Origin: a virus
Taxonomy: Duplodnaviria; Caudoviricetes
IMG/VR virus record: IMGVR_UViG_3300037044_000216
Location: 1-42,202 of that record
Reading direction: 5' to 3' (one strand)
Length of the DNA: 42,202 bases
How positions within the stretch are numbered: the stretch's first letter is position 1; each line of letters begins with the position of its first letter. This document shows, one piece after another, positions 14,100-42,202 of the stretch. The translations under genes and the position numbers were made by a program. Below the pieces are notes generated by a model. That model ran no database searches and was not told the origin of the DNA. It worked only from the letters and a program-made list of their open reading frames with translations.

Positions 14100-14443
14100 G
14101 CAAAGAGATAGTTGACGCGGTCCTGGAGCGCCAGGCAAAAGAGCGCAACGCGCAGATGAAAGCGGATGTCGCTTCCGTCCTGGCCACGCACGCAGGCCGC
14201 AGGCTCCTCATGAACCTTATTGCAAAGGGCGGCGTATGGAGTAAGACCGGGAGCTTTGACGGCGACGGAAACAGGCTCCTTTATGCAGCCGGGCGGCGCG
14301 ACGGCGCGGCCGAGGTCCTGGCACTCTGCAACAAGGTCGCTTGCAAGCTTGTCGAACTCGCGATGAGCGAAAATAACGAACGTCTCCAACAGTGGAACGA
14401 ACAAATACAAAACGCGGAAGCAAAAGGAAACATCGAAGAATGA
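14096..14443 (+). CDS. Bbp19-like protein
   Basis: T.AGRRLL..L.........SF.......Y..GRR motif; lies between portal and scaffold. Confidence 0.75.
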   Translation: MSKEIVDAVLERQAKERNAQMKADVASVLATHAGRRLLMNLIAKGGVWSKTGSFDGDGNRLLYAAGRRDGAAEVLALCNKVACKLVELAMSENNERLQQWNEQIQNAEAKGNIEE

Positions 14444-15246
14444 AAAAATTACTCTGTGATTACATGTTTTTAGACGAGGCAGACGATGGCAGCGGCGGAG
14501 GCGGAGGCGCCGCTGGGGACCCAAAGGCTGGGGATCAAAAGGCTGGCGATCCGAAGTCCGACGATCCGAAGGCTGGGGATCCGAAGGCTGGCGACCAAAA
14601 GGCCGACGATCCAAAGGCTGGGGATCAGAAGGCTGGCGATCCGAAGGCCGACGACCCGAAGGCTGGGGATCAGAAGGCTGGCGCGTCGCTTCTCGATGAA
14701 CCCGAAGAGGAAGAGGTTAAGCCCGAAGAACAAAAGGCCGAGGCGACCCCCGAAGAGGTTGAAGCTTTTGTCGCCAAGATCGGCAAGGTTGATATTGAGA
14801 TAGACGGCGTCGCCCTGCCCTGGGACGAAGAGGCCGTCAAGGCAATCGCCCCGGTCCTGGTCAAGAACAAGATCAGCGACACGGCGGCCAATGAGCTTGT
14901 CGGAGCTTATGCGAAGTATGTCGCCGGGCAGGCTCAGGCAGCAGTGGAAGCGGACAAGCTCTTTGTCAAGGGCCTGGTTGAGGAGTGCAACAAGCGTTTT
15001 GGAACTGACGTCAAGCGGTTTGCCAACGAAGGCCGTCGCGGCGGCATTAAAGTGTTTGGCGCCGAACTCTTTGGCCGCCTCTCGAAGATCCCAGCCTTTG
15101 GCAGCGATCCGGACATCATCGAGGCGCTTGCCAAGATCGGGCGCACATCCACGCCGGAGACCGCAGGCGGCAGCAGCAGCCCGGTACCAAAAGAGAAAGA
15201 CTTTGCCGATCGCTTCTACTCTGACAAAGAAATCGGCAAGAAATAA
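14440..15246 (+). CDS. Capsid scaffolding protein
   Basis: ATG 14440 overlapping previous stop; acidic low-complexity N-terminus; G.DP.II.AL.KIG and C-terminal ADRFY; precedes capsid. Confidence 0.78.
   Translation: MKKLLCDYMFLDEADDGSGGGGGAAGDPKAGDQKAGDPKSDDPKAGDPKAGDQKADDPKAGDQKAGDPKADDPKAGDQKAGASLLDEPEEEEVKPEEQKAEATPEEVEAFVAKIGKVDIEIDGVALPWDEEAVKAIAPVLVKNKISDTAANELVGAYAKYVAGQAQAAVEADKLFVKGLVEECNKRFGTDVKRFANEGRRGGIKVFGAELFGRLSKIPAFGSDPDIIEALAKIGRTSTPETAGGSSSPVPKEKDFADRFYSDKEIGKK
14512..14682 (+). repeat. 11 x 15-bp in-frame tandem repeat ([AS][GD]D[PQ]K)
   Basis: GCTGGGGATCCGAAG-like units encoding AGDPK/AGDQK/ADDPK. Confidence 0.95.
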
Positions 15247-25782: not shown

Positions 25783-27804
25783 ATGCCAAAAGTCCCCGGA
25801 GTAGCGACAAAAGGTTTTAACGGCTCGCAGATTCCGCACATCCAGAGCGTCGATGTTTCGATATTGGAGGCCTCTTCCGCCCGTGCGGGCCGCGCGCTTG
25901 CGGATATGGGCCGATCCATGGCAGGAACCATGGGAGAGGCGTCAGATCTGGCACAGATTTCCCAGCAACGCCAAGACCGGGACACACTCAAGGACGCCCA
26001 GGCCGATTGGGAGGTTACGCGCAACCAGAGCGAAATCGGCCACACAGCCGAGGACGGCACCGTCGTCAAAGGGATCGGGGATTTTGACGTCGGGGATCCG
26101 GAACGCACACAGGCATGGAAACAGGTTATCACGAAATGGCGCGACAATCCGGATGGGCCCTACGCGAAACTGTCGCCGAGCGCGCTCAAAGAGTTTGACC
26201 GCTTCTTCATGGTCGAGTCCGGACGGATCATGGCCCACGCATCCCGGCAAGACGTCGCCACCAAGGACCGGATCCGGCAGCAGACAGACCTCGCCGGGCT
26301 CGAAGCAGCCGAGCGCAACCTCCAGAGCTACGTCTACGAGGATGATCTTTTCGCGGATGCAGCCGACGACTACGCGGACCGGGCTGCCCGCCTGAAGGCC
26401 GGGCGGATGATTGTCAATCCAGAAGAAGAGGACAGCTCCAAATTGCAATTCCGTGACGACGTGAAGAACGAAGACGGAACCGTCACCGGAAATACGCGCA
26501 CCCTCTTTGGTGCAGCACGCGGCGAAGCCCTGGACAAGATCCGGCACAACGGGGCTCGCACCATCGCGGATGGCGTCTTTGAGGCCGAGCACGAAAGCAC
26601 CGCCCTTTATAGGATCGGGATGGCGACCGACCTGGCCGACCTCCTCCCGCCTCACCTGAAGACTGACGCCCTGTCAGCCCTGGAGAACGCCAAGACAAAG
26701 CGGATCAATAATATTTTCGGGGCGGCGATCGCAACCAGCGACCTCGACGAACAGGAGCGCCTTGTCGCTCAGGCCGAGCGGACCGCCAAAGAGTACAAGG
26801 TCGGCGATAAAACACTCGGGGCGGTCACTGAGGACGCAAAAGCCATCCGGGCCGCAGCTTTGAAAGAGGAGAAGGCAATCGCATACGAAGCCCTTGCCCT
26901 GTCGAAACCCTATGAGCCTGGCACAAATGAACGCCGGATAGCCGCGCTGAAATGGGCGCAGCCGAAGATTGAAGCGGCCAGGCGCGCGGAGGCCGCCCGG
27001 AGTCTCACAGGTAACAAAGAATTTATCGCCGGGATGATCGGTTCGGGCGCGTGGGTCAGCCCCCAGGGCGAACTCGTCGCGGTCACGACCGAAGAGCGGC
27101 GCAGCATCCTCAGGGCCCAGCTGGCAGCCGGAAACATCCGGATCGAGGACTACAAGGCGGAAAAAGACAAACTCGACAAGCTTGAGCAATCCGGGAAGAA
27201 GGAGCAGCACGAGAAGACAGCCGCCGACGTGTGCGCCGCCCTGGGGACCGAAATCAAGACACTCTGGAAAGATCCTGTCGCGGTCCTGGACGAAAAAGAG
27301 GATCCTAAAAAATGGGTCGCCCACGCGACAACCGAGACGGTCAGGCGTGAACTGATTGACGAAACTGAAACCGTTGGACAAAAGAGCGTATATACAGGCG
27401 TCGGTTTTATCAGCCAGCCGGATACAAGATTAACCGGGCGCAAGAAAGAGATACAAACCGTCATCAAAAAGAAACGCGACCTTTTGGCTAGCGACGTCCC
27501 GAAGCTCATAAACCTTCTTATGGCAGCAGACTCAGCGGACGGCATCCTGCTCGATCTCGACGGCAATCCGATGACACAGCCGACGCGGATGGATGCGCGG
27601 GCCTACAAGGCCACGTTACTCGCTGACGTCAAAAAACGTCAACTGTCGATCGATATCGACGCGCAAGCAGCAGTCCTTTACGGAGCACTTTCAGCGCGCG
27701 CCCGGGACAACAGAATACTTGAGGTGAGCGCCATACTTGAAAACGCAAAATTAAGACTCCCCACAGAGGAGCGAGACACCCCGGAGGAAGAGAATGACTA
27801 TTAA
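25783..27804 (+). CDS. Internal virion (ejection) protein, gp15-like position
   Basis: 673 aa, helical; MPKVP start; lies between gp14-like gene and the giant protein. Confidence 0.68.
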   Translation: MPKVPGVATKGFNGSQIPHIQSVDVSILEASSARAGRALADMGRSMAGTMGEASDLAQISQQRQDRDTLKDAQADWEVTRNQSEIGHTAEDGTVVKGIGDFDVGDPERTQAWKQVITKWRDNPDGPYAKLSPSALKEFDRFFMVESGRIMAHASRQDVATKDRIRQQTDLAGLEAAERNLQSYVYEDDLFADAADDYADRAARLKAGRMIVNPEEEDSSKLQFRDDVKNEDGTVTGNTRTLFGAARGEALDKIRHNGARTIADGVFEAEHESTALYRIGMATDLADLLPPHLKTDALSALENAKTKRINNIFGAAIATSDLDEQERLVAQAERTAKEYKVGDKTLGAVTEDAKAIRAAALKEEKAIAYEALALSKPYEPGTNERRIAALKWAQPKIEAARRAEAARSLTGNKEFIAGMIGSGAWVSPQGELVAVTTEERRSILRAQLAAGNIRIEDYKAEKDKLDKLEQSGKKEQHEKTAADVCAALGTEIKTLWKDPVAVLDEKEDPKKWVAHATTETVRRELIDETETVGQKSVYTGVGFISQPDTRLTGRKKEIQTVIKKKRDLLASDVPKLINLLMAADSADGILLDLDGNPMTQPTRMDARAYKATLLADVKKRQLSIDIDAQAAVLYGALSARARDNRILEVSAILENAKLRLPTEERDTPEEENDY

Positions 27805-30800
27805 CCCGCAACTGCTCAAAATCCAACCAGGCGACGACCGCGAAAATCTTGACGGAATATCCGGAAAGACGATGCTCTCTTTTGACCTTGAGACACCAGA
27901 AACCGCCCCCGACGAATGGAAGGCGGCGGCGGCCCGGCGGATATCCGAGACGGTCGGCGTGCCGGATCCGGACGGCCGTGTCTGGAAGCGGGACGGCAAA
28001 TCATTTACTACTGGCACCGAGTACCTGGACTTTATGCGTGGGATGCTCAAGAGTGGCAACATTTGGGAGTATGCTGCCACGCCGGAGCTGAAAACCTTTG
28101 AGGCGGCCGACCAGGCCGGGAAGACATCCATTGCCCGGAAGGCCAAGGGCTTTTTGGAAACCTCAGCGGATTCTATCGCCAAGGCTGTTACACCTCAAGG
28201 TTACGGAGTGGCGGACAACGACAAGAGACTCGCAGGCGCGCCGCAAGAGGTTATTGACGCCAACCGCCGGATGCGCGAAGAGAAGGAAGCGGAAGAGCGG
28301 TTCGCGCGCGCCAGTCTGGCCTCTACAATCACCCTGGACAAATCCATCAAGCAAAACGCGCAGCCCTACACGCCACGCTCAGAGGCGGAGCGCAAGGCAG
28401 ACAAGGACGCGATCGACGCCTGGAGAGCGCAGCAGGAAGACGCCTCTATGATCGCGTCGCACAGGGAAAAATTGATGAAGGAGAACGCCTGGGCCGTGTG
28501 GCTTGCTGTTGCTCCGTCCTTGTCCGAGAAGGGCTACAAGGTGGCTTCAGGCGTGTTCCAGGAGCGGAAGCTCTCTGGGGCTGACATCGCGGATTTCCAA
28601 CGACTGGACGAAAAGGAGCAGGCCATTATCGCCAAGCTTGCGCGCACCGTGAGAAACCCAATAGAGGGCGGGCTCTGGAATACTCTTGGAGACGCCGGAA
28701 TCGGCTTTGTAAACCAGCTTCTCTCCCTCCCGGTCAACGCGGCAAAGCAGATCGGAACCCTTGGGGAAAGCGTGGACCGGATCATCTTTGGAAAAACCTC
28801 CCCGCTTCTCATGGACACAGAAGAGGCAAACCGCAGGGCGCGCACCGAGCAGCGGCTTATGGAGGCCCTCGACGATCCTGCCGGGATCAATCCGTCCGGG
28901 GCGGAACACGGCTACCTTGCAAGGTCGCTGATCGGCGCGGTCTCCACGCTCCCCTATATGGGCTACGCCTCCCTGGGCCCGGCGGGCGTGACAGCCGTTG
29001 GCCTTGATTTCATGCAGCAGCTTGATGACCGCATAGCCGCAGAGGGCGGCGACGTATACGGGAAGGACCCGAAATGGCTCGCACAGAAAGCCCTCTATGG
29101 CGCGCTATACGCAGGAATCGAAAAGTTGTCAGCCATACCAATCTTTAAAGAAACATCGGACATCGCGCTCAAGGTCATGTTTTTAAAACTGGCCACGCGC
29201 CACGGTGCAGCCGCAGCCGAGAAGATTGCCGCCTATATCGGCAAGGAAACCTTTATTGAATCGCTTGAGGAATCCGCGCAAAAGATCATCGAGGAGCACG
29301 CCCTTTCAGTCGGGCTCGACAAGGGGCCCGGGTGGCGCGAAGCGGTCCGGAGCGGGATCGGCGAGTTTGGCGAGTCGCTGGGGACCATGGGGATCATTGC
29401 GACTGTCGGGGCTGGGCGGCAGGGTTTCGCGGCCCGCAGACCGTCGCAAAAAAACAGCCTCTTTGACACCGCGCTTTCATCCCTCCGGCGCGAATCCTTT
29501 TTGCTCACCGAAAATCCGTACAGCGGAAAAGCCGCAGGCGAGGCGAGCGACATCGGAACCATCGAGATCGCGGCGACGATTGACGGCTACCGGACAGCCT
29601 GGGCGGACGGCGGATCCGCAGAGCTGAGCAAGCGGTATAAGCTGACCGAGGACCAGGCTGCGATCCTGGACAACGTATTCAGCAGCGAGAACGAACTCGA
29701 CGAGGTGGCCAGGTTCATTGACGGCCGCAACATCTTTATGCGCACGGCCAGCCACGGGGCGGCACACGAAGACGCGACCGCCGAGAGCATCCGCAAGATC
29801 GTCGCCGAGGCGGGCGAGGAGGCCCCAGCGAAGCTTGTCGAGATGGGATTCACCGAGGAGGGGGCCCGGCGTGTGGCCGACTTTTTCAACGCGGCACCGG
29901 AGATCCGGAAGCAGACCGAGGACATCGTCAGCCACCTCCAGAAAACCAAGGGCGAGCAATGGAAAGCCCAGGAGGGCGACCGCGTCGGCGAAGCCCAGGA
30001 CATCGCAGCCGACCTCCAGCCCTTGCGCGCGCTCTATCAGCGCAGCGGAACCAGGGACAACGCCGCCAAGGCGTTTAAAGAGATCGGTCTCGCCGAGGAC
30101 CAGGCCGTCGCCCTGGCCAGCGCCTTCGATGAAGAGCGCAAGCTTGCCACCTCCCCAGGGGCGGCCGCAGCTTTCCGGGCCTTCTACCTGGACACCTCCG
30201 AAGAGGAGACGGCGGCGCAACGCCTGAAACGGATGACAGGTTTCGACGCGGATCCGGCACCCGAACACGGAAAGGGTGCAGCCCGGCTGAGCGTCAAGGA
30301 CGGATCCGGAGCGATCAAAGGGAGCGTGCTCTTTATTCCGGACAAGCGCGAGCAGTTCGACCCGGAGAGCGATCACGCGGGCGAGGCCATCGAGGAGGCC
30401 ACAAAAGGAATGGTTACAGCAGCGGAGTGGAAGGCGCTCACGCCTGAGCAGCGCAAAGAGTCTGCCGCGCGCCTGGGCGTCAAGGTCTCGGGCGGATTCA
30501 CTATCACCAGCGAGACGGATCCCAGCGTCCAGGCGGACGGCGTGCAAGCCAAGCTCCTCACCGGACAGATGACGCTCGCACCGGACGCGCCGTCAGCTAC
30601 GCTCTACCACGAAGCCACCCACGCCTGGCTGGCCGTCATGCGCCACGCCGGGAAACTGACAGAGGCCGACGTCAAGAAGCTGCAGAACCGCTACGGCGTC
30701 GCCGAGAACGATCCGAACTGGTTCAACGAGGAGAAACTGGCCGACGACATCCGGGAGATCGGGGCTGCGCGGGATTTCACACCAGATCAATCCCTGGCTG

Positions 30801-33800
30801 CGCGCTTCATCAAGGCCGTGTGGAAGGTGGCCGGAGCCGCCCGGGCGCAACAGGAGCAGGCTAGGGCCTCTTCTGACGCGATCCAGGCCCTTTATGAGAA
30901 CATCGTCTATGGGAAAGCCTTCGACGGCGTCAGCGACCTGACGGCGCGTCAGGCCCCGCCCAAGGCCAAGGAGAGCCCGAGCCCCGTCGCCGGGGCAGCC
31001 ACAGCCAAACAGGAGAAGTCTGGCACCGCGCAGCCGGATCCCCAACCGGAAGCCAAGCCCGAGCAGCAGCAGGCCGCGCCGAAGAAAGCACAGAAGAAAG
31101 CGGATCCGACAAGCTGGACCGCTGCGACCCCCCAGGGTAACTTGCGCGTCGGCGGGTACTGGATCATCGCGCCGCGAGGCCGCTTTATCAGCGACACGGA
31201 TCCGCGTTACGACTCCACGCTCCAGGGCCGCGCCCGGGACGTGACCCTCTCCAGCGCCGAGCAGGTCAACTCCATCGCAGCCGAAGGCACGTTTGACGGC
31301 CTTCGCCTCCTGGACGCGCCAGACACCGCCAACGGCGCGCCCGTCGCCGTCCCGGTCACGCTGAAAAATCCGGAGACAGGGAAGGACGAGACCTATTTTA
31401 TGGTCATATCCGGAAACGGAAGATTCCGGGCCCTGGACAAAATCGACGACGACAACCGGGGCGACGAATACCGGAACCCGATCCGAATGTTTGCGGATGA
31501 AAAAGGCATCCCCTACAAGCAGGAAGAGATGACGCCGGAGGCCCGGCCGCGCCTGGTCCGGATCCTCACGCGGAAACCCGTTGGCGCGACCCTCCAGCAG
31601 ATCGCGGGACTCTCCAATCAAAACGCCGTGCTGCAGATGACCGACGCGGAGCAGGCCTCCTCCGACGCTGAAATGATCGAGCGCGACGGGACCGCCGGAC
31701 TGTTCAGCGCGAACAAGGACGGACTCCCCTCGAAGACCGGGAGCGACGCCTTTTTCGCGTGGTTTGCGCGTGCTGCAGGCGACGCCTCCCTGATCGACTC
31801 CAAGGGCAACCCGACAGCAGTGGCCCGCGATCGCGCGCGCCGGGCCATGCTGGCCGTCGCCATCGGCAAAGGAAAGAACGGGCGGGAGACCGTCATGGTG
31901 TTCACCGAGGCCGCAGACGCCCTGGGGCTCGAAAGGCAGCGCGACGCGCTCCTCATGTCGGCAGGTTTCCTGTCGGCGCTCGAAGCGAGCAAGCCAGGCT
32001 ACGGGCTTTCAGATGACCTGTCCCGCGCTACCGCCGCCATGCTCACGATCGCCAGGGACCGGAAGTCAGGCAAGACCAGCAATGCCGAGACGTTTATCAG
32101 TCAGGGGGATCTCATTAACCCGATCCCGAGCGAGGTCGCTCAGCTGATCCGGATCCTGGACTCCAGCCGCCCGGCCGAGGGCGTCGCCGAAGTGTTCAGG
32201 CGATACGCGGATCTCGCCTCACGCATCGACACGGAGACCCCGGACATGTTTGGCGAGCCGCCGACACCCAAGCACGAACTACTCAAAAAGGCGACGACCG
32301 ACACCGAGGTCGAAACCGGGACGCGCTACAGCCTGGCAGTCTCAAAGGCGCCGGATGCAGCCTATATGAAGGCTGCGAAGCGCCGGGATCTTGACACCGC
32401 TCAAAAGATGGTCATACAGGTCATAGCCGAAAACAACATCCCGGCGATCCGCCAGATCGGCGACCGCCTCTTCTTCAATGGCGACGACGTCGGCATGCTG
32501 GAGACGCAGCGCGGACCAGGCGGAGAGGTCGAGATCTCACGGCTTTACATCGACGCCGACCGCCAGGGCGAAGGGATCGGATCCGCAGTGATCCCTTACC
32601 TGTTTGCCCAGGGCGCGAAGCGGATCACAGCCTACCCGCTGGAAAGCTCATGGTGGCTCAGGCAGAGCCCTGACGCCGTCCTGGACGACGGCACGATGGT
32701 CTATACAACACCTAAGAATCCCCGAGGGATCCTGTCTGCGGATCCGATCACCTATGACGCCCAGGGCAACATGGTCCCGATCTCTAAGCGGTTCAACGCC
32801 TACAGCAGTGGATCCATGCGCTATTCGATCGCGCTGGCCGCCCGGCGCTACGCCCTGGCCACGGACATGCCAAAGGAGGGCGAGCAGCTGATCGTCAAGC
32901 AGCTTGAGTTTCTCTTTGCCCAGCGGATGGATCCGGAGTATAAACTCAAGACCGATCGCGCAGCAGCGAAGCGGAAAGCCACCCTCAAAGAAAAGGAGCG
33001 CGCGCGGATCGCGGAGATCGGTGCTATAAGTGGGGACGCGCTTGAGGCCCACCAATATCCCGAGTTATGGCGGAAAGCCTTCAGGGCCGCAGGCAACACA
33101 GTTTCGCGCGTGATCCATGAATTTTTCATGCAGGAGGGCCCGCAGGTCTTCCCGCTGACATACCAGGGCAAGCCGATAGAGGGCATGAAGATAGAGAAGC
33201 CCGTAGACGTCGCCGCCCTCTTGATGCCCTTGCGCAACCCCTATCAGGAGTCTACCAAGGCTATTTTTCTCGACGACCGGAACCGGATTATTAACGCTCA
33301 GGTCGTGACTGTCGGTCTCCTGGATTCGACCTCTTATCACCCACGCGAATTTTTCAAGAAGGGAATCAAGGCCGGGGCCAAAGGGATTATCATTGCCCAT
33401 AACCACCCATCCGGCGACCCGACCCCGTCAGATCAAGACAGGAACGTCACGCGCCGCAACATCGAAGCCGGGAAGGTTTTAGGCATTGATCACATTGACC
33501 ACATCATCACGAACGGAAACAAGTTCCATTCAATCCGGGAGGGGATGACACACACCATATCAGCGGATAAAGCTGAATGGGAGGCCACCCGCGCAGGAGC
33601 TACCGCGCACATCGGCAGGCCGGAGGAGCTTGCTCGTTTCGCCCATGTGCTGAAGCAGAGCGGCGACATGAACTATATCCACGCCATCATGCTCGACTCC
33701 AAGGCGCACGTCCAGGCGGTCCACCGGATCCCCTACACGGACACAACCTTCCACGGCGACATTGTGAGGAGTGTTTATAAGGCCGCAGCCGGAGAGCCCA

Positions 33801-36800
33801 CGGCGATGATCCTCCTTGATCTCACCGCTGACAACATGACGCCAAAGGCCGCAAAGGACATTCACAGCCGGATGCTCTTCCCCGGCCAAAACATGGGCAT
33901 GCCTGTTGAGGATTCTGTATACATTGAAAATGGTATGCTGGTTTCCGCTAAACTGGGCGCAGCGTTTGCGCCTCAATTCGCCACCAGCGCGCCGCAGATG
34001 GAAGTATCCGAAAGCGAAATACGCTACAGCATCGAGGCGGCCGAAGCAGAAGAAGCCAAGAAGGTAGCAGATCAGCTTTTCGACGTGTCCCTGGCACGGG
34101 ATCCAGGCGCGGTCCGTCTTGTCCCGGTCGAGGCCTTGCAGTCAGACAAGGGGAACCCCGAGAAGAGTATCACCAACGCGGAAGGGTTTATGCGCGCAGC
34201 TATGGCCGGAACCATGGCCAGGCGCGAACCGATAAACGTCGCCCTTTATGGCGATGGAACCATGTATGTGATCGACGGCAACGCCACGACCTCAGCAGCG
34301 AAGCGCATGGGGATAAAGGCTGTTTGGGTGCAGGCCAAGCCAGCCCTCCGGGGCGGCAGCACGGCAAACTCAGCCCTGTTTATCGACAACCGGAACGCCT
34401 ATTACAAGCAGTCATTTGCGTCGTTGGATGATCTCTATGCAGCAGCGGGCGAAGTCATGGGCGGGTTTTATGATACAGTTAAAGCGATCGCGCAAAAAGC
34501 CGGGATCGGATTTAAAACCCGGACCGGACTGAAAAAGAGGGAGCGCGTCGAGAAGAAAACAAGCGAAGAGTACAACGGCGATTTTAATCAAGTCGTGGAC
34601 GTCGCTGGGGCAACGCTTATTCTTGAAGAGGGGCAAAGGTTTGATGACGCCATCAAGGCTGTTAAAAAATCAGGGCTCGAAATTGTCCGGCTCAAAAACG
34701 GTTATACCGCAGAAAGCATGGGCGGCTACCGGGACATCAAATTAAACATAAAACTTTCCAATGGAGTTGTCGGCGAGATCATCGTTATTGAGGCCGAGAT
34801 CCTGAGGCTGAAGGATGAACACGGACACCACATATATAAAATGATCCGGGACGCCGGAAACCGGAAGCTAAAAACAGGGGATGAAAAATTAAAAACCGCG
34901 CTCGCTTCCCTGATTGATATCATGGAGCGCGTGAGCGCGGTTTACTACGGGATGTCAGATGAAACTTATGAAGCCTTGGAGGCGGCTCTCTCAGCTTCAA
35001 GCCTTTCGAGATACGCCCAGGCCTTAGACTCGTCGTCAACGAATTTGTTATCTGTGAAGTTCCCAGCGAAAAACAATTTGCCGGGTGTCTTAACACGCTT
35101 CCCATCTACAATCTTCAATTTCAAGCAGGGCGCACCATCATCCAGGCTCTCTAGGGCTTCTGAAACGACCTCAGTATCGTCATTAATTAAGAACATTGAG
35201 CTACTCCTTTCTTTAAACAACAATCTCAGCTTAGCACCAACGGGCCCGAATGACAACCGAAAAAAAAGAGGAACGAGCGAGCCTCGCCACGGCGCTAAAG
35301 TTGAGCGTTACGCCGAAGCATATAGGATGCTGTTAGAGAGCGATGCAGACTACAACCTTGTCCCGTCCAGTTTCGGTTTAACACAAGAAGAGGCTGTTGC
35401 TATCGAGATACAAGTCGAGACCGAGGACGCTCACCTCGATGATGACGAGCCGGATCATGAGGGTTATGACGTCGAAGGCGGCGGGCACGACATGGTTGAG
35501 ACGCCGTCGATCCAGGAGCTACTAACCAGCGGCTATCAAAAACTACTCAATTTTGAAGCCGGGAAGGTTGATATCCCGGGCACTACGCGCGAGGACATCA
35601 TCCTCGAAATGGAATACAATATCCGGGAGTTTGGCACAGAGAACCCGGCCGACACACTGGGCGACATTACAGAGGCCCAGGTCATCGAGATCGCAAAGGA
35701 CGCATGGGAATACCGCCAGGCGTTGAACAAGCGCCGGGCCTCCAAGGCCTTAACAAATCCGCGCTACAGTGTCAGCGCCGAGCAGGATGCCGCCTACCTG
35801 GCAGCCGTCCAGCGCGGAGACACCGACACGGCAGCGAAGATGGTGGAGGCAGCAGCAGAGGCAGCCGGATACCAGTTTAAAAAATACCATCAGACCAGCG
35901 GACTCGCGCGCCAGGCTATCTATCGCGAAGGATTCAGACTGGACAAGGGCCGCGCGCGGCTCAGCGACGAACAGGTCCCGGACGCCTTTTTCTTCAAGCA
36001 GGATCCAGCCGACATCAAGATCGGATCCGTTGACGACGCGGTCCAGATCCCGGTATATCTCAAATGGTGGAAGCCAAAGCTTTTCTCAAACCGGGCCGAG
36101 GTCGAGAAGTGGGCCAACGAAGATCCGCGCTATGTCGAGATAAAGGCCCGCATCAAAAAATGGGACAATGAGAACGACGAGGAATTCGACAGGCGCTGGA
36201 AACAGCTTGTTGAATTTGACAGGAGCCCGGACGCGAAAGCAGCCAAGGACGCCTTGCGCGCGGATCTTGCGCTCGATGAACACATCAAGGCATGGGAAGC
36301 CGGGACGCGGGCCATGGCAGCGGAGGCGCGCGCCAACATCACACAAAGGCTGCTCGATGAAGGCTATGACGCTATCTCTATTTTCCGGGACGAAGGATCC
36401 TTCAAGCGGGTTGTCTGGACCACTTGCGTCTTTACGCCCGAGCAGATTAAATCCGCCGACCCCGTGACATACGACGACGCGGGCCAGGTGATCCCGCTCA
36501 GTAAGCGGTTTGATCCGCTAAGCACAAACATCCGGTATCGCCTGGAGACAGAGCAGGCAACCAACGGCCTCGCATGGATGCGCGACTATTACGATGAATC
36601 ACACGGGGACCAGCAAGCCGGATCCGCACGGGACAAGCGCGAGCAACTGGCTGCCGAATTTGCGGCCGTCGAGGCGGCCCACACCAACCCCAACGGGACA
36701 CGCAAAGCCACATGGATGACGGCACCGAACGGAGCCCCCTCCGAGCTAAACGCGCGCAACTGGGTTTTAGTACGGACCCCGGCTTTCAAAAAATGGTTTG

Positions 36801-39800
36801 GAGATTGGGAAAAATTCGCCAACGGCAAAGACGGTAATGGCGTTTTTGCGGATGACAAAGGAGAGGTCTCGAAGGCAGTGGACAAGAACGGGGAACCCCT
36901 TGTCGTTTACCACGGGACGGAACGGTTTGGCTTCACCATCATGGATCCGGAAAAAGCGGACACCCATCGCAGCCCGATGATCTTTGCATCGAGCGAGCTC
37001 GGGACAGCCCGGTCCTACACTGGAGGGGCTACGATCCGGGACGTCCAGGACCTTGACAAGGCGGCTCTCGACGAGGTCGCCCGGGAGTTCTACGGAGACG
37101 AGGAAAGCTTTGACACGCTGCCAGCGGACAAGCGAAACGTCGTGGAAAAATACTATCGGGCTGAATTTGTCGAACCACAGAGCGGCGTATATCCATTATT
37201 CTTGAACATCCGGAACCCGCAGGAAACCGACTTTGAGGGCGCGAATTGGGACGGCGACCGCGAAGGGTGGTTTGAGATCTTCGACGAAGACGGGGAGAAA
37301 TACTACGACCGGGAAACAGGTAAAGGTTTCTTCAGTGACGACGACGCAGAAGAGATCACCGCCGAGCTCTCGATCCAGACCGGGAAGTCTTATGAATGGC
37401 AGGAAGCCACCACGCACCACGAGACAACCAACACCGTTTCAGAGGATGCCCTGAGGTTTGGACACGACGGCGTCATTATCCGCAACGTGGTCGATGACGG
37501 CGGACGCGGCGGCAGCGCGGATATCTCAGACGTCTTTGTCATCTTCAAGTCGAACCAGGCCAAGAGCGCCACGCAGAACATCGGGGCTTTCGATCCTGCG
37601 GACAATGATATCCGTTACAGTGTGCAAACGCGAAAGCTTGAGCCCATGGCCCTGCCCGACAGCATGGCAGAGGTGTACTCAGGCACGAACATCGCATCGC
37701 TCGCACAGACGAAATTCAAAGAGGAGCGCGCACGGCACAAGGCTTTTGTTAAGGCTCAAGAGTGGGACAAGGCTGAGGCGTATGCAAGAGGGCTCGCAGA
37801 AAAGGAGAGCACCGCACTCCTGGGGCACTACCTCCTTGCCAAATACCATGGCGACATGGAGTCAGCGCGGATCGTCGTGGAGAAGTGGGCCAAGCCAGAG
37901 GAGGCCTACAAGATTAAGCTGCTAGTCAACAGGGCCGAGATATTCCGGCCTGTGCTCGCAGCCCCGCTGGGGATCCGCGAGGGCAACAGGTTTAACGCGC
38001 TTCCCATCGAATATGCTGCATGGCTCGCCAAACAGATCGGCGGGGATGTTTCCAATCCCCTCCTCATGTCGGGAGGCACACCGAACACCGGGGCGACGAA
38101 CGCAGCCAGATCCGCCAACCCGCACACTTTTTACGGGGGCGAAGAGATCGACAATGTGTCGCCCGTCATCCTGGTGGATGACGTATGGACCAGAGGCGGA
38201 ACACTCTGGACAGCCTACGAACATATCAAAGAAGTCAACTCGCAGGTAAACGTCATCGCCTTCGCCACGATGGCGGTCAGCCGCTACGGCAAAAACATAC
38301 GGCCAACCCAAAATCAGTTGACCAGTTTTTGGAAAAAGTCTAAACTCACAACCATATCTTTTAAGAAGAGGATCGGCAATGACATTGAAAAACTCACAGG
38401 ATCGGAAATCCACGCATACCTCATTACAGGGAGAGCAGGCCCGGACGGAGCCCAGGAGTTCTTTGACGACGGACAGGGAGGAACTGGAAGCGATGACCAA
38501 GACAGCCGCCAGTCACTATGGGGTGAGGGTCCGGAACAAATCCGTTATGCCCTCGACGTAAGCGGTCAAGCCTATTCCAAAGAGGACCTCCTCACAGGGT
38601 TTATGGCACACGCTGCCATGACCGGAGCCACCTTCCCGAACAAGAAAACAGTTGCCCGCATCGCTGAAAATATCGGCGTCGAAACCTTCGACTACAAGAA
38701 GCTTTCAGATAAAGCCCGCGAGCTGGCTAAGACCACCGAAGACAAGGCCATCAAGAAAGCGGCCGTATCCGGAAGCCGGGACAAAACAGCCTACGCCATC
38801 GGCGAGCTTGCTCGCAAATCCGCGCGGGCCTACGTGAGATCCGGCGCGCGCGAAGGCGAACGCCTGGCCAAGAGCGCAGACCGGATCCGGGGCCTGACAG
38901 AGGAGAATGTCCGGAAGACCATCCAGCTGATGACCGCAGCCGACTACGCCGACCTTAAAACAGACACAGGCATCGACATTGCCGCGTCGATCCTGGCAGC
39001 GGATCCGCAGAAGTTCCAGCCCCAGGATCCCGAAGAGCCCACGGCCGCCGGATCCGGAGAGGCCGACGCCAAGGGAACTTGGGAGGATCCCTCCAATCCG
39101 GAGACCGACGAGAACGCGCCCGACCTCAGCGACAAGCAGCGCGCCGAGATCCGCCGCAAGCGCAAAGAACGCGAGGAGCGGGTCCAGGCGTTTCTCGAGG
39201 CGGCGACCAAGCGCGGGGCCCGCAACAGCCGGAAAGAAGAAGAGCAGAAAAAGCGAGCAGCCGACAAGCAACTCGCTCAGGCCGCCAACGGCAACGAAGG
39301 CGCAGGGGGTGACGGAGCGTCAGGGGGCAAGGCCCCGAAACGTCAGCAACAGGAGGAGGACACCCCAGGGGATCCGATCAACTTTGCGGACCGCTGGGCC
39401 GCCGCCGCCTTATTGCGCGTGTGGGCGTTCGACCGCTTCACAAAAGAGAACCCGAACCGGAGGCAGGATCCGGCAAACGACCGCGTCGCTATCGAGTTTT
39501 ACAGGAAGACGGCTGAGCGGCAGCTTTCCGATCTTGCGCGGAAGCTGCTCGAACCTGGCTACAAGCGGGAGGTTGTGCTATCCTGGATCAGCAACTTGTC
39601 GCCCGGGCTTTCAGCCAACCAGGTTGAACGCCGGACAGCCTACATTTTTGGACTGTTAAACCGCTACGCGGTACGCGAAGAGCGTAAATCCCTGGTTAAA
39701 AAATTCAGAGCCGAAATCAAGCGGCAGTTCATTAAAGGCGAAAGGTTTGAGGAGCTTGACGTTGATCTCGGGCGCGCGCTCACCGGAGCCATCGAGGAGG

Positions 39801-42202
39801 ATGCCCGCTATGTCATGCGCATTTGCGAGCTTTCCGAGCACCACCTGGAGGGCGACACATCCGCGCTGCAGCGCGAACGTGATCGGCTTGAGGCCATCAT
39901 CCACGAGCGCGCCGGACTCCACGACATGGACGGGAACCCGCTTTCCGAGACGGGCGACGACATGCCCCTCCGGAAGGCATATCGACAGATGGCGCTATTA
40001 GAGCGTTATGGCGGCATGGTGGACATGTTGCCCGGCGAGATCCTGGATCTCTCAGGGAAGGCCCTCGACGCGTTCGCCCAGGAGGCCGTCGCCTTGCGCG
40101 AAAGATGGCAGGCTTATGACGACCTGGTCAAATCCATACGCGATCCGCTGGCAGCAGCGATCGCACGGAACCCCGACGATCCGAAGGCGGAGGCGACCGC
40201 AGCGGGCGCGCTGGCCGACAGCTTGACCGGGATGCTCAGGCTACGGCTTGATTTCCTGACACGCTACGCCGAGCCCAGCAAACGCGAGGCGGGGCGCGCA
40301 GCCATCGCAGACATTATGGATCTCCTGGCAAGAGGCAACACCGATTATGCGATCGCGAGGCAGGAAGACGAGGCCGCTTTAAACAGGGCCCTCGGGGAGA
40401 TCTTCCGGAGTCCGGACGGCAAGCCGGACCGGAAGCGGATCCGGGCCTACTTGCGCAGGATGGACGAGCGGATCCCGTATGAGTTATCCGCCCAGATCAG
40501 CTTGCAAGGCCACCAAGGGGCTATGACATACGGCCAGATGCTACAGCTACTTGTTTCCCTGGAGCAGACGGCGAGCTATAGCCAGAACATCGAGAAGCAC
40601 GGACGGCAGGAACAGGCCGACCTTATACGCTCGCACGTCCACGCCACGGCGGACGGCGCAACACAAAGGACGTTCACCAACGAGGACGCCCAGCTTGTCG
40701 AATGGCTGCGGCGCTCGTTCTACACAGACAAGCGCGGCGTGATATCAGTCGTGACGGACCGGATTGCCGGGCGCGGGATCGACAGCCCGGATCCGTTCTA
40801 CCATCCTGTTAAAATGCTACTACAGAAGACCAGGGCCATGCACGTCGGCGAAAATGCCTGGCAGCCGTTAGCCGGCGTCTTTAGCCGTCGCGTGAAAAAC
40901 ACGCTCGACTTTGACGAGACGGCCTCGATCCTCGATGTCTTTGAAGACCGATCTAGGGAGACCGCGCTGCTCATGGCGTTTTCCGAGCGGGGCCTTGTCT
41001 TGCGCGAGGTCCTGATTAATCAGAGCCTGCAGGACGCGATCCGGCGTTTTCACGGGGAGGCCACCCTGGCCACGATCCTAAGGCAGATCGAGCAAACCCT
41101 TAACGGCGGCAAGCCCAGAGCGCAGAGCGACGCACAGACAGCGGCGGCGGCCCTGGCCATGCGCGTTACAACCTATATCGGGCTTGGATGGAATATCCAA
41201 TCCGCAGCCAAACAGGCGGCATCCCTCCCGGCCTTTGCAAACAAGATCGGATTCAAGAAGCTTTTGGCGATCATGGCGAGCCCGGTCGACAAGGATGCGG
41301 TCAGCAGGCTGCGCAACAGCGAGGAGTATCGCGTCCGGTACGGGACCGGGCCCTCCTCGGGGATGGATATCGCCACCAAGGGAGCCTACGAGGATCCGGG
41401 CGACTCAGCTTTCAAAAAGTTCTTTGGGGACTGGGGGCTATGGGCCAACAGAAAAACAGACTGGATTATCAGCGCGTGGATCGGCCAAGCCGTCTACCGC
41501 GACCTTAAGGCCTCCATGATCGACAAAGGCATGAGCGAGGAAGAGGCAGACCGCCGGGCGATCTCCGAGACCTTCTCGATGATCGAGGAGACCCAGCAAT
41601 CCGGCCGGACCGAAAACACCATGGCGCTCACGCGCGAACACGGGATCCTGGGGAAGATGCTGACACAGTTCGCCACGTCGCCGCTGCAGCAGATGCAATA
41701 TGAAATGGCTGCCTTGCGCGAATGGCGCGACCTGGTCGCACACAAGGGCCCTGAGGCGAACATCAAAGAGGCCCGCGACCACTTCATGCGCGCAGCCTTT
41801 ATCAATCATGTCTTGATCCCAGCGGCCATGACGGCGATCACGTCACTTTATAAGGCGACCACAGGCGACGAGCCCGACTGGAAAAAGGAAGGATTCTGGT
41901 GGACGCTCCTCATATCCGCGATCATGGGGCAGTTTAGTAGGATCCTCTTCCTGGGTGCATTTACAGAACAGACCTTGCGCGCCCTCTTCCTGCGGCAGCG
42001 GCCAAACCTGGGGCAGCTTGTCCCGGCCGAGGGCGTGATCCGCTTCTCAGCCTCTCTGGCCTATCCGGTCCGGGACATCGCCACATGGGACACAGAGCAC
42101 TTGCGCGCAGACATCCTGAGGCTACTGAAATCGACAGCCGTGACGCGCCTCCCGGCCAAGCTTTACGAAAGCCTCGACGAGGAGGCTGCGGGTGCTAGAT
42201 AG
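27794..42202 (+). CDS. Giant polyvalent ejection-type protein (4802 aa)
   Basis: GGAGG RBS; HEATH (30608); DdrB/ParB ISGNGR; GNAT RQGEGIG (32561); JAB HNHPSGD (33398); ParB/Srx VIDGN; RelA/SpoT GYRD; ART-like YHQT (35885) and YHGT (36908); PRTase VILVDDV.TRGGT (38165). Occupies the T7 gp16 position. Confidence 0.9.
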   Translation: MTINPQLLKIQPGDDRENLDGISGKTMLSFDLETPETAPDEWKAAAARRISETVGVPDPDGRVWKRDGKSFTTGTEYLDFMRGMLKSGNIWEYAATPELKTFEAADQAGKTSIARKAKGFLETSADSIAKAVTPQGYGVADNDKRLAGAPQEVIDANRRMREEKEAEERFARASLASTITLDKSIKQNAQPYTPRSEAERKADKDAIDAWRAQQEDASMIASHREKLMKENAWAVWLAVAPSLSEKGYKVASGVFQERKLSGADIADFQRLDEKEQAIIAKLARTVRNPIEGGLWNTLGDAGIGFVNQLLSLPVNAAKQIGTLGESVDRIIFGKTSPLLMDTEEANRRARTEQRLMEALDDPAGINPSGAEHGYLARSLIGAVSTLPYMGYASLGPAGVTAVGLDFMQQLDDRIAAEGGDVYGKDPKWLAQKALYGALYAGIEKLSAIPIFKETSDIALKVMFLKLATRHGAAAAEKIAAYIGKETFIESLEESAQKIIEEHALSVGLDKGPGWREAVRSGIGEFGESLGTMGIIATVGAGRQGFAARRPSQKNSLFDTALSSLRRESFLLTENPYSGKAAGEASDIGTIEIAATIDGYRTAWADGGSAELSKRYKLTEDQAAILDNVFSSENELDEVARFIDGRNIFMRTASHGAAHEDATAESIRKIVAEAGEEAPAKLVEMGFTEEGARRVADFFNAAPEIRKQTEDIVSHLQKTKGEQWKAQEGDRVGEAQDIAADLQPLRALYQRSGTRDNAAKAFKEIGLAEDQAVALASAFDEERKLATSPGAAAAFRAFYLDTSEEETAAQRLKRMTGFDADPAPEHGKGAARLSVKDGSGAIKGSVLFIPDKREQFDPESDHAGEAIEEATKGMVTAAEWKALTPEQRKESAARLGVKVSGGFTITSETDPSVQADGVQAKLLTGQMTLAPDAPSATLYHEATHAWLAVMRHAGKLTEADVKKLQNRYGVAENDPNWFNEEKLADDIREIGAARDFTPDQSLAARFIKAVWKVAGAARAQQEQARASSDAIQALYENIVYGKAFDGVSDLTARQAPPKAKESPSPVAGAATAKQEKSGTAQPDPQPEAKPEQQQAAPKKAQKKADPTSWTAATPQGNLRVGGYWIIAPRGRFISDTDPRYDSTLQGRARDVTLSSAEQVNSIAAEGTFDGLRLLDAPDTANGAPVAVPVTLKNPETGKDETYFMVISGNGRFRALDKIDDDNRGDEYRNPIRMFADEKGIPYKQEEMTPEARPRLVRILTRKPVGATLQQIAGLSNQNAVLQMTDAEQASSDAEMIERDGTAGLFSANKDGLPSKTGSDAFFAWFARAAGDASLIDSKGNPTAVARDRARRAMLAVAIGKGKNGRETVMVFTEAADALGLERQRDALLMSAGFLSALEASKPGYGLSDDLSRATAAMLTIARDRKSGKTSNAETFISQGDLINPIPSEVAQLIRILDSSRPAEGVAEVFRRYADLASRIDTETPDMFGEPPTPKHELLKKATTDTEVETGTRYSLAVSKAPDAAYMKAAKRRDLDTAQKMVIQVIAENNIPAIRQIGDRLFFNGDDVGMLETQRGPGGEVEISRLYIDADRQGEGIGSAVIPYLFAQGAKRITAYPLESSWWLRQSPDAVLDDGTMVYTTPKNPRGILSADPITYDAQGNMVPISKRFNAYSSGSMRYSIALAARRYALATDMPKEGEQLIVKQLEFLFAQRMDPEYKLKTDRAAAKRKATLKEKERARIAEIGAISGDALEAHQYPELWRKAFRAAGNTVSRVIHEFFMQEGPQVFPLTYQGKPIEGMKIEKPVDVAALLMPLRNPYQESTKAIFLDDRNRIINAQVVTVGLLDSTSYHPREFFKKGIKAGAKGIIIAHNHPSGDPTPSDQDRNVTRRNIEAGKVLGIDHIDHIITNGNKFHSIREGMTHTISADKAEWEATRAGATAHIGRPEELARFAHVLKQSGDMNYIHAIMLDSKAHVQAVHRIPYTDTTFHGDIVRSVYKAAAGEPTAMILLDLTADNMTPKAAKDIHSRMLFPGQNMGMPVEDSVYIENGMLVSAKLGAAFAPQFATSAPQMEVSESEIRYSIEAAEAEEAKKVADQLFDVSLARDPGAVRLVPVEALQSDKGNPEKSITNAEGFMRAAMAGTMARREPINVALYGDGTMYVIDGNATTSAAKRMGIKAVWVQAKPALRGGSTANSALFIDNRNAYYKQSFASLDDLYAAAGEVMGGFYDTVKAIAQKAGIGFKTRTGLKKRERVEKKTSEEYNGDFNQVVDVAGATLILEEGQRFDDAIKAVKKSGLEIVRLKNGYTAESMGGYRDIKLNIKLSNGVVGEIIVIEAEILRLKDEHGHHIYKMIRDAGNRKLKTGDEKLKTALASLIDIMERVSAVYYGMSDETYEALEAALSASSLSRYAQALDSSSTNLLSVKFPAKNNLPGVLTRFPSTIFNFKQGAPSSRLSRASETTSVSSLIKNIELLLSLNNNLSLAPTGPNDNRKKRGTSEPRHGAKVERYAEAYRMLLESDADYNLVPSSFGLTQEEAVAIEIQVETEDAHLDDDEPDHEGYDVEGGGHDMVETPSIQELLTSGYQKLLNFEAGKVDIPGTTREDIILEMEYNIREFGTENPADTLGDITEAQVIEIAKDAWEYRQALNKRRASKALTNPRYSVSAEQDAAYLAAVQRGDTDTAAKMVEAAAEAAGYQFKKYHQTSGLARQAIYREGFRLDKGRARLSDEQVPDAFFFKQDPADIKIGSVDDAVQIPVYLKWWKPKLFSNRAEVEKWANEDPRYVEIKARIKKWDNENDEEFDRRWKQLVEFDRSPDAKAAKDALRADLALDEHIKAWEAGTRAMAAEARANITQRLLDEGYDAISIFRDEGSFKRVVWTTCVFTPEQIKSADPVTYDDAGQVIPLSKRFDPLSTNIRYRLETEQATNGLAWMRDYYDESHGDQQAGSARDKREQLAAEFAAVEAAHTNPNGTRKATWMTAPNGAPSELNARNWVLVRTPAFKKWFGDWEKFANGKDGNGVFADDKGEVSKAVDKNGEPLVVYHGTERFGFTIMDPEKADTHRSPMIFASSELGTARSYTGGATIRDVQDLDKAALDEVAREFYGDEESFDTLPADKRNVVEKYYRAEFVEPQSGVYPLFLNIRNPQETDFEGANWDGDREGWFEIFDEDGEKYYDRETGKGFFSDDDAEEITAELSIQTGKSYEWQEATTHHETTNTVSEDALRFGHDGVIIRNVVDDGGRGGSADISDVFVIFKSNQAKSATQNIGAFDPADNDIRYSVQTRKLEPMALPDSMAEVYSGTNIASLAQTKFKEERARHKAFVKAQEWDKAEAYARGLAEKESTALLGHYLLAKYHGDMESARIVVEKWAKPEEAYKIKLLVNRAEIFRPVLAAPLGIREGNRFNALPIEYAAWLAKQIGGDVSNPLLMSGGTPNTGATNAARSANPHTFYGGEEIDNVSPVILVDDVWTRGGTLWTAYEHIKEVNSQVNVIAFATMAVSRYGKNIRPTQNQLTSFWKKSKLTTISFKKRIGNDIEKLTGSEIHAYLITGRAGPDGAQEFFDDGQGGTGSDDQDSRQSLWGEGPEQIRYALDVSGQAYSKEDLLTGFMAHAAMTGATFPNKKTVARIAENIGVETFDYKKLSDKARELAKTTEDKAIKKAAVSGSRDKTAYAIGELARKSARAYVRSGAREGERLAKSADRIRGLTEENVRKTIQLMTAADYADLKTDTGIDIAASILAADPQKFQPQDPEEPTAAGSGEADAKGTWEDPSNPETDENAPDLSDKQRAEIRRKRKEREERVQAFLEAATKRGARNSRKEEEQKKRAADKQLAQAANGNEGAGGDGASGGKAPKRQQQEEDTPGDPINFADRWAAAALLRVWAFDRFTKENPNRRQDPANDRVAIEFYRKTAERQLSDLARKLLEPGYKREVVLSWISNLSPGLSANQVERRTAYIFGLLNRYAVREERKSLVKKFRAEIKRQFIKGERFEELDVDLGRALTGAIEEDARYVMRICELSEHHLEGDTSALQRERDRLEAIIHERAGLHDMDGNPLSETGDDMPLRKAYRQMALLERYGGMVDMLPGEILDLSGKALDAFAQEAVALRERWQAYDDLVKSIRDPLAAAIARNPDDPKAEATAAGALADSLTGMLRLRLDFLTRYAEPSKREAGRAAIADIMDLLARGNTDYAIARQEDEAALNRALGEIFRSPDGKPDRKRIRAYLRRMDERIPYELSAQISLQGHQGAMTYGQMLQLLVSLEQTASYSQNIEKHGRQEQADLIRSHVHATADGATQRTFTNEDAQLVEWLRRSFYTDKRGVISVVTDRIAGRGIDSPDPFYHPVKMLLQKTRAMHVGENAWQPLAGVFSRRVKNTLDFDETASILDVFEDRSRETALLMAFSERGLVLREVLINQSLQDAIRRFHGEATLATILRQIEQTLNGGKPRAQSDAQTAAAALAMRVTTYIGLGWNIQSAAKQAASLPAFANKIGFKKLLAIMASPVDKDAVSRLRNSEEYRVRYGTGPSSGMDIATKGAYEDPGDSAFKKFFGDWGLWANRKTDWIISAWIGQAVYRDLKASMIDKGMSEEEADRRAISETFSMIEETQQSGRTENTMALTREHGILGKMLTQFATSPLQQMQYEMAALREWRDLVAHKGPEANIKEARDHFMRAAFINHVLIPAAMTAITSLYKATTGDEPDWKKEGFWWTLLISAIMGQFSRILFLGAFTEQTLRALFLRQRPNLGQLVPAEGVIRFSASLAYPVRDIATWDTEHLRADILRLLKSTAVTRLPAKLYESLDEEAAGAR
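34966..35196 (-). CDS. Nested antisense gene (76 aa), candidate antitoxin/immunity protein
   Basis: ATG 35196 with AAGGAG 7 nt upstream and a promoter match; MFLINDDTEVVSEALESLDDGAPCLKLKIVDGK...AWAYLERLEAERAASKAS. Confidence 0.7.
   Translation of the reverse strand: MFLINDDTEVVSEALESLDDGAPCLKLKIVDGKRVKTPGKLFFAGNFTDNKFVDDESKAWAYLERLEAERAASKAS
35228..35256 (-). promoter_or_regulatory. Sigma70-type antisense promoter inside the giant ORF
   Basis: TTGTCA (35256-35251), 17 bp, TGn-TAAGCT (35233-35228); T-tract upstream of the -35. Confidence 0.65.

Follow-up and report, generated by a model that had tools for sequence, protein, structure and literature searches.

What is the role of a short peptide motif that recurs between biochemically unrelated domains of a single giant phage protein? 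This question is raised by a stretch of 42,202 nucleotides (nt) from a virus of the Caudoviricetes (Duplodnaviria; IMG/VR record IMGVR_UViG_3300037044_000216, positions 1 to 42,202), referred to here as the window, in which an open reading frame (ORF) at 27794-42202 on the plus strand encodes a protein of 4,802 amino acids (aa). An earlier note, made from the sequence alone, had listed seven copies of R-Y-[S/A/R] in this protein and had proposed that they mark module boundaries, serving as cleavage sites, as junctions for cargo exchange or as both. We found that the motif bounds exchangeable cassettes between two fixed scaffolds and that it is conserved as amino acids, and we discuss the motif-bearing junctions, called seams below, as candidate sites of self-cleavage.

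Recurrence of the motif

All seven motifs listed in the earlier note lie in frame in the giant ORF, the coordinates there being those of the Arg codons (aa 1511, 1676, 2077, 2657, 2914, 3274, and 3584). A chance origin was rejected, as RYS occurs five times in the window protein with 0.59 expected and RY[SAR][LIV] nine times with 0.44 expected, and neither count was reached in any of 2000 shuffles. The residue after the motif matters because loose R-Y-[S/A/R] has 13 matches, including six at other places (aa 1470, 1685, 2406, 2505, 3957, and 4157). Adding L, I, or V at the next position retains two copies besides the seven sites: a conserved tandem copy at aa 1685, where the JAB cassette begins, and one at aa 3957, inside the C-terminal scaffold. 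The JAB cassette is thus opened by two motifs nine residues apart (RYSI...RYAL; 32819-32857, plus strand), an arrangement that is kept in relatives.

The excess was also seen in the 13 closest proteins, the window protein included, which hold 45 RYS with about 5 expected. At 53 seams from these 13 proteins, R and Y were present in all 53, followed by S (42), A (10), or R (1) and then by L (27), I (15), or V (11) with variable flanks, a core that is partly fixed by construction because the seams were selected by pattern.

Seams as cassette boundaries

A whole-length search, in which the best 1372 candidates were scored, provided 34 proteins for comparison. BLAST segments among the relatives begin and end at motifs, and R-Y-[S/A]-[L/I/V] stands at both ends of every cassette in 12 close relatives whose cargo differs. 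In order to avoid circularity, the motifs were masked before homology breakpoints were counted. Within 25 aa of a motif lay 58 of the 139 distinct internal breakpoints (287 of 435 raw ends), with a random expectation of 17.8 on average and 32 at most over 5000 draws, and six of the seven window seams have a masked breakpoint within this distance. When 17 proteins were split at the motif, 11 classes of cassette emerged, variously combined, with one to six cassettes per complete protein, and all 13 family proteins have both a seam after the ParB scaffold and a seam before the C-terminal scaffold. No motif falls inside any Pfam-matched stretch of the window protein. The masked breakpoints, the BLAST segment ends, and the cassette split agree in supporting the motif as a module boundary, as the earlier note had read it. 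A fixed N-terminal scaffold, composed of the metallopeptidase (MPTase) and DdrB-ParB regions, and a fixed C-terminal scaffold enclose exchangeable, motif-bounded cassettes.

Two cassettes of only 12 to 13 aa, empty between two seams, were also observed (L030, 14492-14542; P0006, aa 2054-2069), and these are probably relics of cassette loss.

Conservation of the seams as peptide

The codons used at the seams were compared in the 12 genes with DNA. Arginine is encoded by CGC (28), CGG (9), AGG (4), CGT (2), and CGA (2), roughly as in each gene's own usage, and serine by AGC (18), TCG (18), TCC (10), AGT (3), and TCT (1), thus from both the AGY and TCN families and again roughly following gene usage. 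The seven window seams have only A..CG.TA.....T in common and nothing within 30 nt on either side. Since the codons vary synonymously and conservation does not extend to the flanking DNA, it is the peptide that is under selection and not a recombinase site; the motif is conserved as amino acids, not as a DNA site.

A bias in serine codons was nevertheless detected between clades. Of the 19 seam Ser codons in the window's clade, 17 belong to the AGY family (background about 0.32; p 3e-7, a value that overstates the bias because the seams are largely orthologous and non-independent), whereas the sister clade has AGY at 4 and TCN at 27 of 31. The window alone has AGY at four of five (p 0.06). The bias suggests that seams were copied as DNA along with their cassettes rather than arising anew. 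The proposal that the motif marks recombination junctions is therefore retained in part: cassettes are gained and lost exactly at seams, and the seams of the window's clade keep one codon family, but no DNA site extends beyond the codons. A dedicated DNA recombination site was rejected on these grounds.

Two seam classes in distant proteins

A wider set was assembled from proteins with the ART2 cassette (the best 120 of 855 and the best 150 of 6834), 286 proteins being dereplicated to 187. The seam was read at a fixed anchor, the conserved C-terminal end of the ART domain, and 286 of 297 anchors could be read, in 159 proteins. These comprised 229 seams of an S class, mostly [IL]R[YF]S but also IR[RK]S and ITFS, 36 of a Q class, I[YFL]xQ, and 21 others. 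All 59 proteins with at least two S or Q seams were pure, so that no protein mixes xR[YF]S with I[YFL]xQ. With a looser anchor 57 of 68 proteins were pure, versus a shuffle mean of 33 and maximum of 43.

The class was then compared with the ancestry of the peptidase and of the adjacent cassette. For the same 113 proteins with a core HExxH, it changes twice on the MPTase tree and nine times on the adjacent-ART tree. Both are FastTree trees from short alignments; a few offsets were re-called and the HExxH of P0040 was replaced by hand with the N-terminal one (the count was four before), and the peptidase tree left out 12 low-scoring HExxH segments and all cargo-type HE[ILVAMT]QH motifs. Nearest neighbors predicted the class of 171 of 174 seams when taken by peptidase and of 155 when taken by ART. 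ART domains that are 55-68% identical can end in opposite classes, and for 20 of the 36 Q seams the downstream module is common to an S seam. Away from the anchor, the S motif occurs 86 times in S proteins (37 expected) and 3 times in Q proteins (8 expected), and the strict Q motif 35 times in S proteins (36 expected) and 21 times in Q proteins (10 expected). A split into three classes by an aromatic or other third residue was tried and dropped, as the non-aromatic class was not better predicted by the peptidase (31 versus 36 right of 54).

Within the Q clade, BPP-1 Bbp10, two other phage records, DC33, and Jess A gp39 have a seam immediately ahead of the RG-x-F strand of the peptidase. Among cultured phages it is found near aa 766 in BPP-1 Bbp10 (L038) and, as LLAQ, near aa 790 in gp39 of Caulobacter phage Jess A (L042). 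On the basis of this placement, the first cut made by the Q-clade peptidase may serve to release or activate the enzyme itself. Four further proteins (P0200, P0203, P0226, and P0258) carry 7 to 12 ART-type cassette ends in series with protein-specific seams (IRFS, IRxR, ITRR, and IRKM), showing homogenization within a protein.

Predicted peptidase and proposed function of the seams

The HExxH metallopeptidase motif that the earlier note placed upstream in the same protein is present as HEATH at aa 939 (nt 30608), within a domain predicted to be zincin-like. Residues G900, F902, H939, E940, H943, E979, and E980 do not vary among the 17 full-length relatives or the 11 domain copies compared, and the HExxH and conserved downstream Glu agree with the description of the MPTase in PMC5512222. 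The peptidase alignment had no relevant sequence match in Pfam or the PDB. AlphaFold2 models of the peptidase alone reached predicted TM scores (pTM) of 0.36 without an alignment and 0.37 with 24 rows, the strands before the HExxH being unresolved in the latter; Foldseek and VIA searches gave no meaningful match, a result that says nothing on the fold. In the ESM Atlas the peptidase retrieved only unnamed clusters below 0.9, with one LPD23-containing lead at 0.87.

We judge it somewhat probable that the R-Y-[S/A]-[L/I/V] seams are self-cleavage sites of this predicted HExxH zinc peptidase. Cleavage by the HExxH domain, proposed in the earlier note, is the best-supported reading from the sequences, in view of the conservation at the protein level, the invariant catalytic residues, and a seam class that tracks the scaffold and peptidase. 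After packaging, the giant protein would thread through the tail and regain its fold in the cell, where the peptidase would then cut at the seams and free the GNAT, JAB, RelA-like, two ART, and PRTase units; the cut would more likely occur after ejection, and Y|S and S|[L/I/V] are the candidate scissile bonds. Recombination at duplicated resident seams and frames, or inside them, may bring in new cassettes, which would be kept only if bounded by a site that the resident enzyme reads. By analogy with the Rhs PxxxxDPxGL junction, exchange at the seams would be compatible with cleavage at the seams. A wider proposal is that phage polyvalent proteins are true polyproteins with a matched code of protease and site: the zinc peptidase of each lineage would read its own four-residue seam (R-Y-S-[LIV] here, I-[YFL]-x-Q for the clade of BPP-1), a new cassette would be released only if it had taken on the resident seam, and the seam would be a plug-in standard by which any enzyme could be loaded into the virion and set free once the cell is infected. 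We put this forward tentatively, as a possibility nearly as likely to hold as to fail.

Several findings weigh against self-cleavage. The zincin fold of the domain at aa ~800-1050, a sheet of three strands with flanking helices, is a prediction, not a confirmed fold. Of the 139 breakpoints, 81 lie away from motifs and represent indels or exchanges within cassettes and scaffold. Q proteins, too, show a small excess of the strict S motif (7 with 4.4 expected). Because the Q class is essentially one MPTase clade, the comparison of classes amounts to one transition only. Among 100 proteins, the class was predicted by the peptidase with 95 right, 0 wrong, and 5 without a hit, by the ART domain with 91, 9, and 0, and by the C-terminal scaffold with 93, 2, and 5; because this scaffold predicts the class almost as well, a link to the peptidase specifically is not isolated. 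What these sequence comparisons show is that the seam class follows the resident protein or scaffold, even beside a cassette common to both classes, and not specifically its peptidase. Seven of the 41 large proteins outside the peptidase set lack both HExxH and HExxxH, with a mixed outcome for their seams: P0144 and P0154 look full length and have no detectable HExxH yet keep canonical IRYS/IRFS, and of the other five P0032 seems to be missing part of its N terminus, three carry degenerate seams, and one offers no anchor. Another four proteins, with ITFS seams, carry only cargo-type HE[ILV]QH motifs. Finally, the virion RNA polymerase (RNAP) of N4, despite its HExxH domain, is said in PMC5512222 to be packaged without processing and was studied as a linked multidomain chain (PMC13434306), the linkers of this protein (gp50) are without either seam motif class, and the authors working on phi24B propose a peptidoglycan or cell-wall role for their peptidase.

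Two alternatives keep the motif as a protein signal. As an uncut binding tag, it would be a short strand that docks to the MPTase-like domain, to a chaperone, or to the tail channel and so orders the packing, unfolding, or refolding of cassettes during ejection. Such a tag accounts equally well for the protein-level conservation and the matching to the scaffold, third-position variants are tolerated (RYR and RYA here, IRFR and ITRR in others), and the HExxH-bearing ejection protein of N4 is described as uncut. We consider this doubtful, since the catalytic Glu and third-ligand Glu are invariant in all aligned relatives, the Q-clade seam right before the first conserved strand suits release or activation, and no binding partner is indicated. 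It is also unlikely that the motif is cut by another protease, be it a cargo-type HE[ILV]QH module, a trans-acting virion peptidase, or a host enzyme. The proteins named above that keep the motif without a detected HExxH, or with only HE[ILV]QH, fit such an enzyme, the class tracks lineage no less well than it tracks the peptidase, and window gene 14392-15246 has a weak PHROG "protease" match (E 1e-6). However, the product of that gene is low-complexity and scaffold-like, HExxH occurs just once in the window protein, which contains no HE[ILV]QH module, and a host enzyme hardly explains two classes that are pure within proteins.

The other two alternatives place the signal in the DNA. The motif could be an inherited crossover point only, a micro-homology of 12-15 nt copied with each cassette and devoid of protein function, and the start and end of homology at the seams, the AGY codons of the non-independent seams in the window's clade, and the empty cassettes are all in keeping with this. 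It is decidedly improbable, however, as the residues stay while their codons change synonymously (CGC/CGT/CGG/AGG; TAC/TAT; AGY/TCN, with TCN prevailing in the sister clade), flanking residues and DNA diverge freely, and the motif persists across proteins whose only likeness is the cassette end. Site-specific recombination sites of the integron attC or shufflon sfx type are conserved as DNA beyond coding constraint. A site of this kind encoded by the motif would agree with the in-frame recurrence of CGCTACAG, which genes of the close clade carry at 2 to 4 of their seams, and with an integrase-like gene, called by eye, that flanks or follows the giant gene in several relatives. That gene sits at the prophage end, the ordinary place of an integrase, and with so little DNA common to the seven window seams and codon families that differ between clades, such a site is hardly credible.

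Scaffold and cargo of the window protein

The features of the giant protein are collected in Table 1. The module labels given in the earlier note held at Pfam cut-offs for ddrB-ParB, RadC/JAB, and the second ART-PolyVal domain (ART2), and the first ART, GNAT, PRTase, and RelA labels fell below the cut-off or were weak. The RelA/SpoT-like part matched Pfam RelA_SpoT weakly (E 0.04), and its sole PDB sequence match was Tas1 (6ox6, E 3e-4), a (p)ppApp synthetase; this cargo (34484-34819, plus strand) is possibly an alarmone synthetase injected with the virion. The small ParB-like part of cassette M5 and the second, degenerate JAB copy of cassette M1 are by-eye calls only. No Pfam or PHROG match was obtained for the C-terminal scaffold.

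Table 1. Features of the giant ORF in the window, in order of position.
Feature	Positions (nt)	Strand	Remarks
Phage-type polyvalent protein, 4802 aa	27794..42202	+	place of large ejection protein in operon
Predicted zincin-like metallopeptidase (core MPTase), aa ~800-1050	30191..30943	+	G-x-F strand, HExxH, downstream EE
HEATH zinc-binding motif, aa 939-943	30608..30622	+	sole HExxH of the window protein
DdrB-like region with ddrB-ParB domain (aa 1139-1256), end of fixed N-terminal scaffold	31121..32314	+	PF18763 E 3e-11
Seam 1, T-R-Y-S-L, scaffold/cargo	32321..32335	+	same place in all 13 family proteins
Cassette M3 with GNAT-like insert	32336..32815	+	Pfam GNAT E 7e-4, below cut-off; flanks cluster with ART cassettes
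Seam 2, M-R-Y-S-I	32816..32830	+	tandem R-Y-A-L after, at 32846-32857
Cassette M1, RadC/JAB (aa 1801-1916) and degenerate second copy	32831..34018	+	PF04002 E 5e-35; in 13/17 proteins
Seam 3, I-R-Y-S-I	34019..34033	+	
Cassette M5, ParB-like part, RelA/SpoT-like synthetase (aa ~2231-2342), ~160 aa acidic	34034..35758	+	420-aa form in P0007, L014
Seam 4, P-R-Y-S-V	35759..35773	+	sole seam without masked breakpoint within 25 aa
Cassette M3 with ART-PolyVal (ART1)	35774..36529	+	PF18760 E 2e-5, below cut-off
Seam 5, I-R-Y-R-L (variant)	36530..36544	+	IRYR/IRFR also at all three ART ends of P0039
Cassette M4 with ART-PolyVal (ART2, aa 3112-3266)	36545..37609	+	PF18760 E 3e-17
Seam 6, I-R-Y-S-V	37610..37624	+	D3272, R3274, S3276 invariant in full-length alignment
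Cassette M2, PRTase-like domain	37625..38539	+	PF00156 E 2e-4, below cut-off; in 10/17 proteins
Seam 7, I-R-Y-A-L, cargo/C-terminal scaffold	38540..38554	+	same place in all 13 family proteins
Fixed C-terminal scaffold, about 1,215 aa	38555..42202	+	40-67% identity in 17 closest relatives

The GNAT cassette (32336-32815) and the first ART cassette (35774-36529) have common N- and C-terminal flanks, and it seems from this that a cassette frame was reused with its catalytic interior exchanged. The acidic extension of cassette M5 (~160 aa; 35250-35758, plus strand) matches no fetched protein, and the RYA at aa 2505 near the start of the acidic stretch could be a decayed seam. RadC/JAB (33194-33541, plus strand) is found here in a phage-type polyvalent protein; PMC5512222, in the text available, confines RadC to those of conjugative elements.

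Genome setting

The window largely covers the genome of a temperate short-tailed phage. Genes for terminase, portal, GP7-type capsid, Bbp16/Bbp19-like, tail, and internal-virion PHROG products lie on the plus strand upstream of the giant ORF, which closes a short-tail (BPP-1-like) virion operon. On the basis of this gene position, the 4,802-aa protein is likely packaged in the virion and ejected. It joins several biochemically unrelated domains, is encoded among virion morphogenesis genes, and varies in domain content among relatives, and it is thus a phage-type polyvalent protein as defined in PMC5512222. The relatives sit in contigs labeled Kiritimatiellae and Lentisphaerae, together with two gut bins that are labeled otherwise and possibly misbinned.

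No stand-alone spare cassettes were found downstream of the giant gene in nine relative loci, apart from a second polyvalent gene in L034 (20799-29252, minus strand), which lies just past the integrase-like gene, encodes at least 2,817 aa, and has cassettes common to the window family. For the one 451-nt stretch searched, no DNA-level relative was found among cultured phages. At the low-GC left end of the window (1329-2571, minus strand), an MT-A70 family methylase adjoins a BglII-like endonuclease in a restriction-modification-like pair.

Relation to known systems and significance

Self-processing by the MPTase has only been predicted since 2017, and a defined seam makes the prediction directly testable. 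With the seams, individual cargo enzymes (ART, JAB, RelA-like, PRTase, and unnamed cassettes) have exact ends for expression, and the seams allow unknown cargos to be excised computationally from giant ORFs. Caulobacter phage Jess A is a cultured phage, grown on a harmless host, that bears the sister-class seam. If the cut is real, it would provide a phage parallel to the polyprotein processing of RNA viruses and a naturally occurring rule by which ejected proteins can be given further cargo.

The closest known relatives are the polyvalent proteins of Iyer et al. 2017 (PMC5512222), who predicted that the MPTase processes the chain into functional units. These are likewise giant proteins of virion operons with MPTase, DdrB-like ParB, ART-PolyVal, GNAT, RelA/SpoT, and JAB domains; in the available text no recognition site is named, whereas here a site stands at every cassette seam, in two exclusive classes. 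P1 DdrB, which is said to be processed (PMC5512222), is 28% identical over about 400 aa in the DdrB-ParB region and has a C-terminal HExxH, but with 995 aa it has no cargo cassettes. As a check on the seams it lends no support because the one RFS that it contains, at aa 760, does not fit the reported product of ~700 aa.

BPP-1 Bbp10 and the IVP-D family, which includes Jess A gp39 (as labeled in PMC4819975), resemble the window protein in their position after internal virion genes, in the HExxH domain, and in a seam, of the Q class, before the peptidase; they differ in a length of about 2,050 aa, little cargo, and a peptidase of another clade. The two peptidases gave only a weak hhalign profile match (E 0.008, probability 5%). 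The virion RNAP polyproteins of crAss-like phages (bioRxiv 10.1101/2020.03.07.982082) are also giant ejected proteins with a zincin/HExxH domain for which cleavage of the fusion is proposed, but neither there nor for N4 (PMC13434306) is a site or cut given in the text available.

In Rhs toxins (PMC8636562) one short motif likewise marks both the exchange point of variable cargo and the site of autoproteolytic release. They carry a single C-terminal cargo and an aspartyl autoprotease within the motif, whereas the proteins described here have up to six serial cargos and a separate predicted zinc peptidase. With no RHS/YD Pfam match in the window protein and no DPxG in the seam motif, the system works alike but is not a member.

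No description of the seam motif was found in the literature searched, which mostly excluded subscription papers, and the supplementary alignments of PMC5512222 may show it. The polyvalent family and the idea of MPTase processing are already published (PMC5512222; for crAss-like fusions, 10.1101/2020.03.07.982082). To these the present analysis adds the R-Y-S code of a PVC-group phage family, together with the test on codons and the observation that an identical seam can switch from one class to the other.

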